From IMG/VR virus record IMGVR_UViG_3300037882_004081, positions 1 through 64,000 of that record: DNA of 64,000 nucleotides. One strand, written 5' to 3'. Made by a program: the position numbers and the translations under genes. Under the pieces are notes generated by a model, which saw nothing but the letters and a program-made list of their open reading frames with translations, was not told where the DNA came from and made no database searches. Below are positions 22,422-25,667 of this stretch, in pieces; the stretch's first letter is position 1; each line of letters opens with the position of its first letter. This stretch comes from a virus.

Positions 22422-22805
22422 CTACCCGTTCGCTCCGTGCTCGTCCCGTTCTATCTTCAACTCGTACATCAGAGCGGTGTCTTTGCACATTCGCTTCTGT
22501 GTGTTGTTCTTCCACCCGTTGCTCGGAAGATCTACCCACAGTATCCCAGACTCGATCACGCACCTCACCCATCCCAGTTCCTCCATCACGAAATCGTAGG
22601 GCTCCCCCGTGAACCCTCTGGTTTCTGCGATTTCCTTGGCTGTGGAAACGTGGCTTGGTTCCGATAGCCCCTTAACCAGTATCACTTTGCCATTTGGAAG
22701 AGCCCAGAATCCGTGGAACTCTGGGTACTGTGGAAGCTCATCAAAGCCCAATTCGACCCCGGCACGGATCGACTCCAACAAGCGGTTGATGGCCTCAACT
22801 AGCAT
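22422..22805 (-). CDS. Hypothetical protein, candidate capsid-internal protein
   Basis: N-terminus MLVEAINRLLES; HGFWALPNG...H...GWVR motif. Confidence 0.7.
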   Translation of the reverse strand: MLVEAINRLLESIRAGVELGFDELPQYPEFHGFWALPNGKVILVKGLSEPSHVSTAKEIAETRGFTGEPYDFVMEELGWVRCVIESGILWVDLPSNGWKNNTQKRMCKDTALMYELKIERDEHGANG

Positions 22806-23037
22806 CGCTGGGGAGTGTGGTACCAGCGCGGAAGAACGTCACCTCGCCACGGAGAGCGCGGCTGGTGGCGACCTTGTTGGCAAAGCGCTTGGCAGACGTC
22901 CAGTCCTTGAAGACCGGCTTGGTGAGCTTCCACTTGCCCGTCCAGTTACGGTAGGCAACCTGCACGCCACCACTTGCTTCGCTGTCGAAGTCATCAATCC
23001 TGGCAAGCGTTTCTTCGATCCGTTGGACGAGTTTCAC
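22795..23037 (-). CDS. Small hypothetical protein
   Basis: GTG start overlapping the upstream stop (GTGA): MKLVQRIEETLARID. Confidence 0.6.
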   Translation of the reverse strand: MKLVQRIEETLARIDDFDSEASGGVQVAYRNWTGKWKLTKPVFKDWTSAKRFANKVATSRALRGEVTFFRAGTTLPSDAS

Positions 23038-23369
23038 GTCGATAAATAAGCGATAACGCCAAGGAACGAAATGTGCCACGCTTGGTCCATGCACAGTGGA
23101 CCCATGGGCCACATGTCGGGAGTGGTTTGCCCAAAGAACCCCATCCATCTAATGTGAAGTGCGAACCTGTCTTGCAACCAGTGCTGCACGAGGATCGCGG
23201 CCAGCGCCCACCACGGCAACCCAACCTTCCATACCAGCAACAAGAATGGTAGCGCGTAAACCGCCACGTGGACCGTACAAACGAACGAGCTAGAATTCTT
23301 CCGTTGCATCCAGTGGTTCTGGAGCGGGAAATCACCGAACGCGTGAGCGGCAATCAGATACCCTAGCAT
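23034..23369 (-). CDS. DUF3307-family membrane protein
   Basis: AHAFGDFPLQ..WM..K, HVAVY, HWLQD, DQAWH motifs. Confidence 0.88.
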   Translation of the reverse strand: MLGYLIAAHAFGDFPLQNHWMQRKNSSSFVCTVHVAVYALPFLLLVWKVGLPWWALAAILVQHWLQDRFALHIRWMGFFGQTTPDMWPMGPLCMDQAWHISFLGVIAYLST

Positions 23370-23388
23370 ATGTGCCAGAAAAATACAG

Positions 23389-23418
23389 CGAAGCCGCACC
23401 TTGTAGGGTGCGGCTTCG
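23389..23418 (-). terminator. Intrinsic terminator hairpin
   Basis: 12-bp stem CGAAGCCGCACC/GGTGCGGCTTCG with a T-rich tail on the minus strand. Confidence 0.7.
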
Positions 23419-23494
23419 AGAAACAGTTGGGGTGGTGTTGGTTACTTCATGGCGTAGGTGGGTTGGTGTTGACTGTGGGGAAGTTAAGAAAGCC

Positions 23495-23599
23495 CTACCA
23501 GTCCTCGCCGGTGATTTCGCCGCGAGTTTCCCAAGCTTCGTTCAGAAGCTCGGCGTCTTGCTGCTCGGTCTCAGGCTGTTGGTCGGGTTGCTTGCTCAT
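23495..23599 (-). CDS. 34-aa highly acidic early peptide, leaderless
   Basis: Translated by hand: MSKQPDQQPETEQQDAELLNEAWETRGEITGEDW; lies between its own promoter and a terminator. Confidence 0.65.
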   Translation of the reverse strand: MSKQPDQQPETEQQDAELLNEAWETRGEITGEDW

Positions 23600-23604
23600 G
23601 GTAC

Positions 23605-23633
23605 ATTTTACCACACAAAGTGACACTTGTCAA
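23605..23633 (-). promoter_or_regulatory. Sigma70-type early promoter
   Basis: TTGACA-17 nt (TGTGG)-TAAAAT; -35 box overlaps the toxin stop codon. Confidence 0.88.
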
Positions 23634-23947
23634 GTCCCCCCTCTCTTCCACAGGCTGTCGTACTTCGCGTGGGGTCCGATGAAGAACCACACGTAGTCGT
23701 TCCCATCCTTCTTCGCGACTGCCCGATATTCGAAGTTGATCGAAATGCGCCACATACCGGGGATGTGCTTGAGTTCCCGGAAATCAGTCGATGACGGGTC
23801 CTGTTTCCACTTCGCGTACACCTTCCGCGCCTGAGCCTGCACCCGCTCGGGCAGTTCAGTGAACTGCTTGTCGAATTGGCGCGTCTTGGACTCCAGAAGC
23901 TCCGGCTTCCAGTCAAGTACCCGTATGATGGCGGCGGCGGCGGACAC
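23630..23947 (-). CDS. RelE/ParE-superfamily toxin (putative mRNA interferase) with an N-terminal extension
   Basis: TRQFDKQFTELPERVQAQARKVY..WKQDP..., WRISINFEYRAV, WFFIGPHAKYD. Confidence 0.82.
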   Translation of the reverse strand: MSAAAAIIRVLDWKPELLESKTRQFDKQFTELPERVQAQARKVYAKWKQDPSSTDFRELKHIPGMWRISINFEYRAVAKKDGNDYVWFFIGPHAKYDSLWKRGGT

Positions 23948-24201
23948 TAATGCTGTTGGAATGTTACTGAGTCTCCTTCAGTGCCAAGATCATTTTTCCA
24001 ACCCGGCATAAACTCACCAGCCAGTTTCACCAGTTCGGCTGGATTGTTAGTGAAAAACGTGACGGTCGGGTTGTCGGTGTGGTGCGGGTCCCACTCAAAG
24101 TCGGTCGCCAGACCGAGTTGCTTCGCCTTGACGAACAAGCCTTTGGCAATGTCGTCGGCGGGTTCTCCAAGAGATTCTTGGATTCGTTTGGTCAGGCTCA
24201 T
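23947..24201 (-). CDS. Small hypothetical protein coupled to the toxin gene
   Basis: Start MSLTKRIQES; its TAG stop shares a base with the toxin GTG. Confidence 0.65.
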   Translation of the reverse strand: MSLTKRIQESLGEPADDIAKGLFVKAKQLGLATDFEWDPHHTDNPTVTFFTNNPAELVKLAGEFMPGWKNDLGTEGDSVTFQQH

Positions 24202-25638: not shown

Positions 25639-25667
25639 ACTATACCATAGCTTCTAACTCTTGTCAA
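25639..25667 (-). promoter_or_regulatory. Sigma70-type early promoter
   Basis: TTGACA-17 nt (TATGG)-TATAGT. Confidence 0.85.

Follow-up and report, generated by a model that had tools for sequence, protein, structure and literature searches.

When a lytic phage carries the toxin of a cellular toxin-antitoxin family, which protein, if any, neutralizes it? The question is raised by a RelE/ParE-type toxin gene in the IMG/VR virus record IMGVR_UViG_3300037882_004081. We analyzed the first 64,000 nucleotides of this record (the window); all coordinates are those of the window, and every gene of the locus is on the minus strand. The full record has 102,728 bp and 56.7% G+C and is estimated to be 55% complete. 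The phage is T4-like, with a UvsX-like recombinase and helicase, and most of its large proteins have no match in PHROG. A sequence-only reading of the locus had proposed that the toxin is injected or made late and that it is neutralized by an acidic peptide of 34 amino acids (aa), which is encoded just downstream. We tentatively favor a different answer: the toxin may be a phage-adapted RelE-type RNase that is expressed from a host-type promoter together with an 84-aa open reading frame (ORF) just upstream. This 84-aa ORF would be the likeliest neutralizer, if there is one, and the 34-aa peptide would be an independent early gene.

The toxin matches the Pfam family PF24732 (ParE_like) with E = 8.3e-8 and 32.6 bits, above the curated cut-off of 24.4, and it matches PHROG 1213 ("RelE-like toxin") with E = 1.9e-4. 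We searched 1.84 billion cluster representatives exhaustively with HMMER and found 430 relatives at E <= 1e-3, with 30-47% identity. The sole close relative is P0001 (103 aa, ~79-82% identical), which comes from a Logan assembly, on a contig of 4,867 bp. We modeled the toxin with AlphaFold2 (AF2) from an alignment of 102 sequences, and the model has a predicted local distance difference test score (pLDDT) of 87.5, with values of at least 95 in the core. From residue 18 onward it has the classical beta-alpha-alpha-beta3-alpha toxin fold (strands at 18-21, 65-69, 74-81, and 84-92; helices at 23-31, 34-49, and 93-103), with a low-confidence helix ahead of it. The nearest folds (by Foldseek and VIA-align) are RelE (3bpq_B, Z of 11.6, root-mean-square deviation [rmsd] of 2.1 over 82 residues), YafQ (Z of 10.8), and YoeB (Z of 10.4). 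Given the Pfam match above the cut-off, the PHROG match, and these folds, the membership in the RelE/ParE superfamily that had been proposed from the sequence is well founded.

Within this superfamily, the toxin most likely cuts mRNA on the ribosome, as RelE, YoeB, and YafQ do, despite the name of its Pfam family. This is because its predicted fold is RelE/YoeB/YafQ-like (ParE proteins score lower, with Z of 8.2-8.7) and because an Arg-His-Tyr set is conserved in its relatives. Among the 102 aligned relatives, W87 and H93 are invariant, and F25, L32, P33, A40, R75, G91, and Y96 are nearly so. The spacing of 18 between the Arg and the His equals that of R65 and H83 in YoeB. Also, the toxin is basic (net charge of +6, isoelectric point [pI] of 9.7). 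Both the superfamily and the Pfam family of the toxin are known, and related domains are already annotated in large myoviruses: proteins with ParE-like domains are annotated in other large lytic ones, such as RaK2 and fHe-Yen9-04.

The features of the locus are as follows, in the direction of transcription:

25639-25667, minus strand: sigma70-type promoter TTGACA-17-TATAGT, with a leader (from a scan for the promoter family)
23947-24201, minus strand: acidic 84-aa ORF, whose TAG stop codon shares its G with the GTG start of the toxin (TAGTG, an overlap of 1 nt)
23630-23947, minus strand: RelE/ParE-superfamily toxin, 105 aa, GTG start (PF24732 match)
23891-23947, minus strand: toxin codons 1-19, an N-terminal extension that ends in LLE just before Ser20 and lies outside of the toxin fold
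23605-23633, minus strand: consensus early-type promoter TTGACA-17-TAAAAT with a TG-extended -10 element (11 of 12 consensus positions)
23495-23599, minus strand: leaderless ORF of 34 codons for the acidic peptide, with its ATG at 23599, 5 nt past the -10 element
23419-23494, minus strand: 3' untranslated part of the peptide's transcript, 76 nt, rich in C and A and poor in G
23379-23418, minus strand: intrinsic terminator with a 12-bp stem (9 G-C pairs; the stem-loop is 23418-23389), a loop of 6 nt, and a T run

This layout is what the sequence-only reading had described, and its description was accurate throughout: a promoter lies over the toxin's stop codon (the -35 hexamer of the promoter at 23633-23605 contains the TGA at 23632-23630), a leaderless 34-aa peptide with 10 Asp/Glu and two Trp follows, and a terminator completes a separate unit. 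That reading was also right that no typical helix-turn-helix or ribbon-helix-helix antitoxin lies beside the toxin, as the flanking ORFs have no match to any of these in Pfam, PHROG, NCBIfam, or the sequences of the PDB.

The idea that the toxin is expressed late found no support. The toxin is downstream of the sigma70-type promoter at 25667-25639, which is followed by a 212-aa ORF, a gene with NUMOD3 repeats, the 84-aa ORF, and the toxin, in that order. We found no terminator-like site on the minus strand between this promoter and 23418, and these four genes are probably one operon. The terminator at 23379-23418 would close both the peptide's unit and any read-through from the toxin's operon. 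The motif TAGGTYT is a candidate for the phage's late promoter (12 sites versus 5.8 expected; 4 of 100 shuffles reach 12), and there is no exact copy of it upstream of the toxin.

How do cellular members of the family keep their toxin in check? We examined 80 cellular toxin loci (L007-L086) from Cyanobacteria, Planctomycetota, Acidobacteriota, Bacteroidota, and other groups. In 72 of these 80 loci, an acidic ORF of ~72 aa, which begins about 216 nt upstream of the toxin, ends 4 nt inside the toxin's start (for example, L014:1786-2001). The encoded protein has a median net charge of -8 and a helical sequence pattern, and its Trp and L-x-x-LA-x-x-A motifs hardly vary. It has no entry in Pfam or NCBIfam and is an unannotated family of antitoxins that is widespread in Cyanobacteria, Planctomycetota, Acidobacteriota, and Bacteroidota.

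This canonical antitoxin is not detectable in the phage record, which covers 55% of the genome. When we compared a hidden Markov model of these 72 antitoxins to the 2401 six-frame ORFs of the 102,728-bp record, the best hit had E = 1.5 and was in an unrelated frame. The 84-aa ORF's frame ranked 18th (1.7 bits), and that of the peptide scored -0.5 bits.

Still, the 84-aa ORF occupies the position where the cellular relatives keep their antitoxin. It is acidic (net charge of -6, pI of 4.76), and its coding score is 0.374 bit per codon (based on a codon table from 59 long genes of the same record). Against the antitoxin profile, HMMER gave it 2.6 bits, and 33 of 2000 shuffles did as well; the corresponding result for the peptide was 0.9 bits, with 808 of 2000 composition-matched shuffles as good. 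With hhalign, the 84-aa ORF has P = 0.014, in an alignment that has a 9-residue insert and that places EWD on the invariant-Trp motif and F-6-L-KLA-E-M on the most conserved helix of the antitoxin, and the peptide has P = 0.19. A likeness between the peptide and the canonical antitoxin that we had seen by eye was rejected after the HMMER shuffles and the hhalign comparison. We also used a home-made semi-global profile alignment, with shuffles that kept the initial Met fixed, and its outcome depended on the parameters for both candidates. The 84-aa ORF had P of ~0.014-0.02 with lenient gap penalties and 0.37 with slightly stricter ones. For the peptide, which matched the antitoxin's N-terminal half (P-x-x-EQ-DA ... 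W), P was ~0.014-0.02 with lenient gaps and 0.04 with slightly stricter ones. Given two candidates and several methods, none of these similarities to the antitoxin is significant. Overall, the 84-aa ORF, which the sequence-only reading had named just in passing, is at least as good a candidate for the antitoxin as the 34-aa peptide is.

The peptide itself is a real coding gene that is separately promoted and terminated, as had been proposed. Its ORF scores 0.554 bit per codon, while true in-frame windows of 34 codons score 0.34 +/- 0.18. Only 0.03% of off-frame windows and 0.7% of antisense windows score as high, and the peptide's two other frames have negative scores. The product contains 3 Asp, 7 Glu, and 2 Trp, has a net charge of -8 and a pI of 4.05, and ends in EDW. 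We found no homologue of it in the collections that we searched: with the query extended to the 43-codon frame, its only match among 5.8 billion proteins was itself. The ESM Atlas gave no usable lead for either the peptide or the 84-aa ORF.

The peptide and the toxin have a common reading frame, and only the TGA and ten sense codons lie between them. If the TGA, which a C follows, were read through (as in genetic code table 4), then the product would be a 150-aa fusion of toxin, linker, and peptide, joined at 23597-23632 (minus strand). This shared frame is probably a coincidence that arises from the promoter's sequence. We did use the fusion for modeling: in its AF2 model, the toxin part has pLDDT of at least 95, the peptide forms an amphipathic helix (fusion residues 127-141) with pLDDT of 52-60, and there is no sign of confident docking of the peptide, although this is a weak test because the peptide has no alignment depth and there was no contact map.

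The peptide's promoter belongs to a family that recurs throughout the phage. The family (TTGACAA...TGTGnTAnnnT) has 12 sites in 64 kb, a count that was not attained in any of 100 shuffles (2.4 sites expected), and at 8 of these sites an ATG lies 5-6 nt past the -10 element, where transcription would begin at or beside it. Furthermore, this phage shows no sign of Shine-Dalgarno usage: the core of the Shine-Dalgarno sequence lies upstream of 9 of 102 genes, as compared to 14 in internal control 16-mers. Leaderless early mRNAs are a general rule in this phage. With 8 of 12 promoters leaderless and no Shine-Dalgarno usage, the peptide's start is credible but not special. Similarly, since there is one such promoter per ~5 kb, the adjacency of a promoter and the toxin is expected by chance.

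Within the spacer of the peptide's promoter (23611-23621, minus strand) is an 11-nt palindrome, AAGTG-T-CACTT, which could be an operator or due to chance; the spacers of the other promoters of the family differ. At the other end of the unit, the 3' untranslated stretch and the terminator hairpin (23391-23447, minus strand) resemble the Rfam family NsiR4, a cyanobacterial small RNA. We rejected membership in this family because the match is below threshold (25.4 bits versus a gathering score of 40). Taken with the lack of Shine-Dalgarno usage and the toxin's cyanobacterial relatives, the match hints at a cyanobacterial host, but it could be due to chance. A gene for a DUF3307 membrane protein (PHROG 2470; 23034-23369, minus strand) begins directly past the T run of the terminator, and no recognizable promoter of the sigma70 family lies ahead of it.

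We found no near relative of this phage among the GenBank phages or in IMG/VR. The region of the locus, the toxin, and the toxin's relatives P0014 and P0006 had no match in 50,697 phage records (by megablast and tblastn). Scans of IMG/VR with the toxin, the neighboring 212-aa ORF, P0014, P0004, P0006, the 84-aa ORF, and a back-translated motif from the peptide gave nothing useful, and one locus that had seemed to be related (L002) was a false positive. Two scans of Joint Genome Institute metagenomes did not find relatives of the locus either.

The toxin has another feature that needs to be explained, which is its N-terminal extension. Typical relatives have 85-90 aa, and their residue ~5 aligns with residue ~21 of the phage toxin. 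Because these relatives align from residue ~20, residues 1-19 are an add-on to the fold, which agrees with how the sequence-only reading had set these residues apart. In agreement with this, the VIA alignments start at residue 15-19 of the model, and pLDDT is 56-71 in the extension. The first 19 codons look coding (0.60 bit per codon). The toxin and P0001 agree at just 3 of the first 16 positions, versus 88% of the remainder.

Similar extensions are present in about 20 of the 102 aligned relatives, and 12 have hydrophobic-x-Glu at a distance of 7-19 residues from the Met (such as FLRLFE, LIRLLE, IIKLLE, FLHLFE, or LLE before Ser). In a maximum-likelihood tree that was built from the core domain only, 11 of the extended relatives fall into one group of 15 rows (support of 91/90). 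Across the tree, the presence of the extension requires 10 changes, as compared to 16.7 in shuffles, and none of 500 shuffles was as low. In a sample of 301 genomes of Planctomycetota, the top matches were all short forms. The toxin belongs to a distinct and new clade with an extension of 10-20 residues that resembles the capsid-targeting propeptides of T4. Such propeptides have ~10-20 residues and end in hydrophobic-x-Glu, as do residues 1-19 of the toxin, with their LLE end.

Three IMG/VR contigs from large phages (L004-L006, 7-11% complete) have ILE-S or ITE-S directly before the same toxin domain. There, the domain is fused to a basic C-terminal tail of ~90 aa (L004:1230-1973, L005:3959-4576, and L006:1670-2287), and a conserved 578-aa protein of unknown function follows. 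We considered whether the tails could be fused antitoxins and rejected this because they are basic rather than acidic. Within our window, a 127-aa ORF two genes downstream of the toxin (22422-22805, minus strand) starts with MLVEAINRLLES, which closely resembles the N-terminal tags of relatives of the toxin that come from other samples (P0004, with MNIHRLIRLLE, and P0001, whose extension ends in RRLLES). This likeness hints that the tag may be a transferable module.

How would the locus work? In the explanation that we tentatively prefer, the toxin gene would be a phage-adapted member of a widespread cellular family of type II toxin-antitoxin systems. From the sigma70-type promoter at 25667-25639, host RNA polymerase would transcribe both the 84-aa ORF and the toxin gene, and if any protein neutralizes the toxin then it would be the product of the 84-aa ORF, which overlaps the toxin's start as the canonical antitoxin does. 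The peptide would be an independent leaderless early gene for host takeover or anti-defense, one of at least eight such units, and its location next to the toxin would be incidental. Several observations weigh against this explanation. The 84-aa ORF resembles the antitoxin only weakly (P of ~0.015), and the likeness vanishes at stricter gap penalties. We found no homologue of it in the collections that we searched, even though P0001 is a 79%-identical toxin. Its ESM Atlas model is a small globular alpha/beta domain (pLDDT of 0.66) and is unlike the helical antitoxin. Genes of this compact genome generally overlap, and the coupling of the 84-aa ORF to the toxin is therefore weak evidence. The record includes just 55% of the genome. 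And the peptide, too, can be aligned to part of the antitoxin if gaps are lenient. Finally, a promoter just ahead of a downstream antitoxin is known from the toxin-first higBA system of plasmid Rts1. This last precedent favors an antitoxin role for the peptide: a strong leaderless promoter located where the toxin gene ends would supply an excess of the peptide, which would neutralize the toxin by binding it directly. The peptide's coding character, the opposite charges of the two proteins (-8 and +6), the peptide's predicted amphipathic helix, and the likely presence of its gene both on the toxin's transcript and on one of its own would all fit, and so would the gap-dependent alignment. Nevertheless, the sequence-only reading is not supported on this point, and we consider it improbable: the peptide matches the canonical antitoxin no better than many shuffles do, 72 of 80 cellular loci have the antitoxin gene ahead of the toxin, none of the collections that we searched contains a homologue of the peptide, its confidence in the fusion model is low (albeit in a weak test), and promoters of its type are frequent and mostly leaderless.

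The toxin could instead be a true orphan without a protein antidote, an early endoribonuclease that acts on host mRNAs or early phage mRNAs to speed up host shut-off or the switch from early to middle expression. T4 RegB is just such an early mRNA endonuclease: it has a RelE/YoeB-like fold with an extra N-terminal helix, and it has no known antitoxin (PMC3014915). Our phage is T4-like, its toxin is in a sigma70-promoted unit, the canonical antitoxin was not detected in the record, and large myoviruses such as RaK2 and fHe-Yen9-04 have proteins with ParE-like domains. However, the toxin is not related in sequence to RegB, whose family (PF10715) has no match across the 102,728-bp record, and it derives from a toxin-antitoxin family whose members need their antitoxin. 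Also, the 84-aa ORF sits at the antitoxin's position and has a marginal likeness to it, and 45% of the genome is outside of the record. We view an orphan toxin as doubtful. Another proposal, which fits with any model of the antidote, is that the toxin is packaged in the virion and ejected into the host: the N-terminal 10-20 residues would be a capsid-targeting propeptide that is cut after Glu by the prohead protease, and the toxin proper would begin at Ser20. The internal proteins of T4 are varied effectors that share only a short capsid-targeting sequence of this kind, which the prohead protease removes, and the proteases of T4-type and giant phages cut after Glu (PMC3012670, PMC5694885). If the toxin were cut after E19, its new N-terminus would resemble that of the cellular toxins, and the extended clade, with its hydrophobic-x-Glu motifs, and the ILE-S or ITE-S of the three large-phage contigs also speak for this proposal. 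Yet neither a gp21-type protease (PF03420) nor the gp23 capsid gene was found in the record, which is 55% complete; as gp23 is missing as well, the head module is probably in the part of the genome outside of the record. Other points against packaging are that [LIVF]-x-E-[SAT] is not enriched at N-termini across the genome (8 seen versus 8.2 expected), that the toxin is in a sigma70-type unit and has no exact copy of the late motif upstream, that its own extension fits the tag pattern less well than those of its relatives, and that most of the extended relatives are from Logan contigs of uncertain origin. Packaging seems unlikely to us. The most elaborate scenario is that large T4-like phages recruited a clade of RelE-type toxins as capsid-packaged, processed, and ejected effectors that stop host translation as they arrive and that, in this phage, the 34-aa peptide from the first leaderless early transcript then switches the injected toxin off, so that toxin and antidote would be divided between virion and early genes. 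This we consider very unlikely.

To our knowledge, toxins of toxin-antitoxin systems in strictly lytic T4-like phages have been annotated but not studied. This locus is a case in which a phage has kept the toxin of a cellular pair and the canonical antitoxin is undetectable. Three findings are new: the N-extended clade, a lytic T4-like phage in which the toxin's canonical antitoxin is not detectable, and the coding, leaderless gene for a 34-aa acidic peptide that has no homologue in the collections that we searched. Should the 84-aa ORF prove to be the toxin's partner, then the locus would be a phage-borne toxin-antitoxin module of the ordinary kind, whose antitoxin has diverged. T4 RegB shows that an RNase with the RelE fold can serve a phage without an antidote. 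If the tag does target the capsid, then the diverse ejected effectors of T-even phages would include RelE-type toxins. The ATG starts of most early transcripts and the lack of Shine-Dalgarno usage should help in the annotation of very small early genes, among them that of the peptide.

Among known systems, the toxin shares with the mRNA interferases RelE, YoeB, and YafQ (3bpq, 4ml0, and 2a6r) a fold (Z of 10.4-11.6, rmsd of 2.1-2.4 over 77-83 residues), a basic character, and, in the last strands and the C-terminal helix, the Arg, His, and Tyr that its relatives conserve. It differs from them in sequence (10-19% identity), in its ~16-19 extra N-terminal residues, and in the lack of an antitoxin of the RelB, YefM, or DinJ type, and its RNase activity is a predicted one. 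Like the internal proteins of T4 (IPI-III and Alt), it has a short hydrophobic N-terminal tag that ends in hydrophobic-x-Glu before an unrelated effector domain, but in this phage the tag is a putative one, suggested by the sequence pattern. The promoter at the toxin's 3' end that drives a small downstream gene resembles that of higBA from Rts1. The difference is that the phage's downstream product has just 34 aa, no DNA-binding domain, and no detectable relation to an antitoxin, and that its promoter recurs throughout the phage. Like T4 RegB, the toxin would be made early by a T4-type phage, its fold resembles those of RelE and YoeB, and it has an additional N-terminal helix and no known antitoxin. 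However, there is no sequence similarity between them (PF10715 is unmatched at E <= 1), RegB has 153 aa and makes use of two His residues, and RegB cuts GGAG in Shine-Dalgarno sites, which this phage does not appear to use. A further parallel is with the cellular PF24732 pairs. Their toxins are 85-90 aa long, lack the extension, and have a 2-residue insert (in the HPSL region), and their antitoxin is a helical protein of 72 aa; but the core of the toxin is homologous, and in the phage as in the cellular pairs, an acidic ORF lies directly upstream and overlaps the toxin's start.

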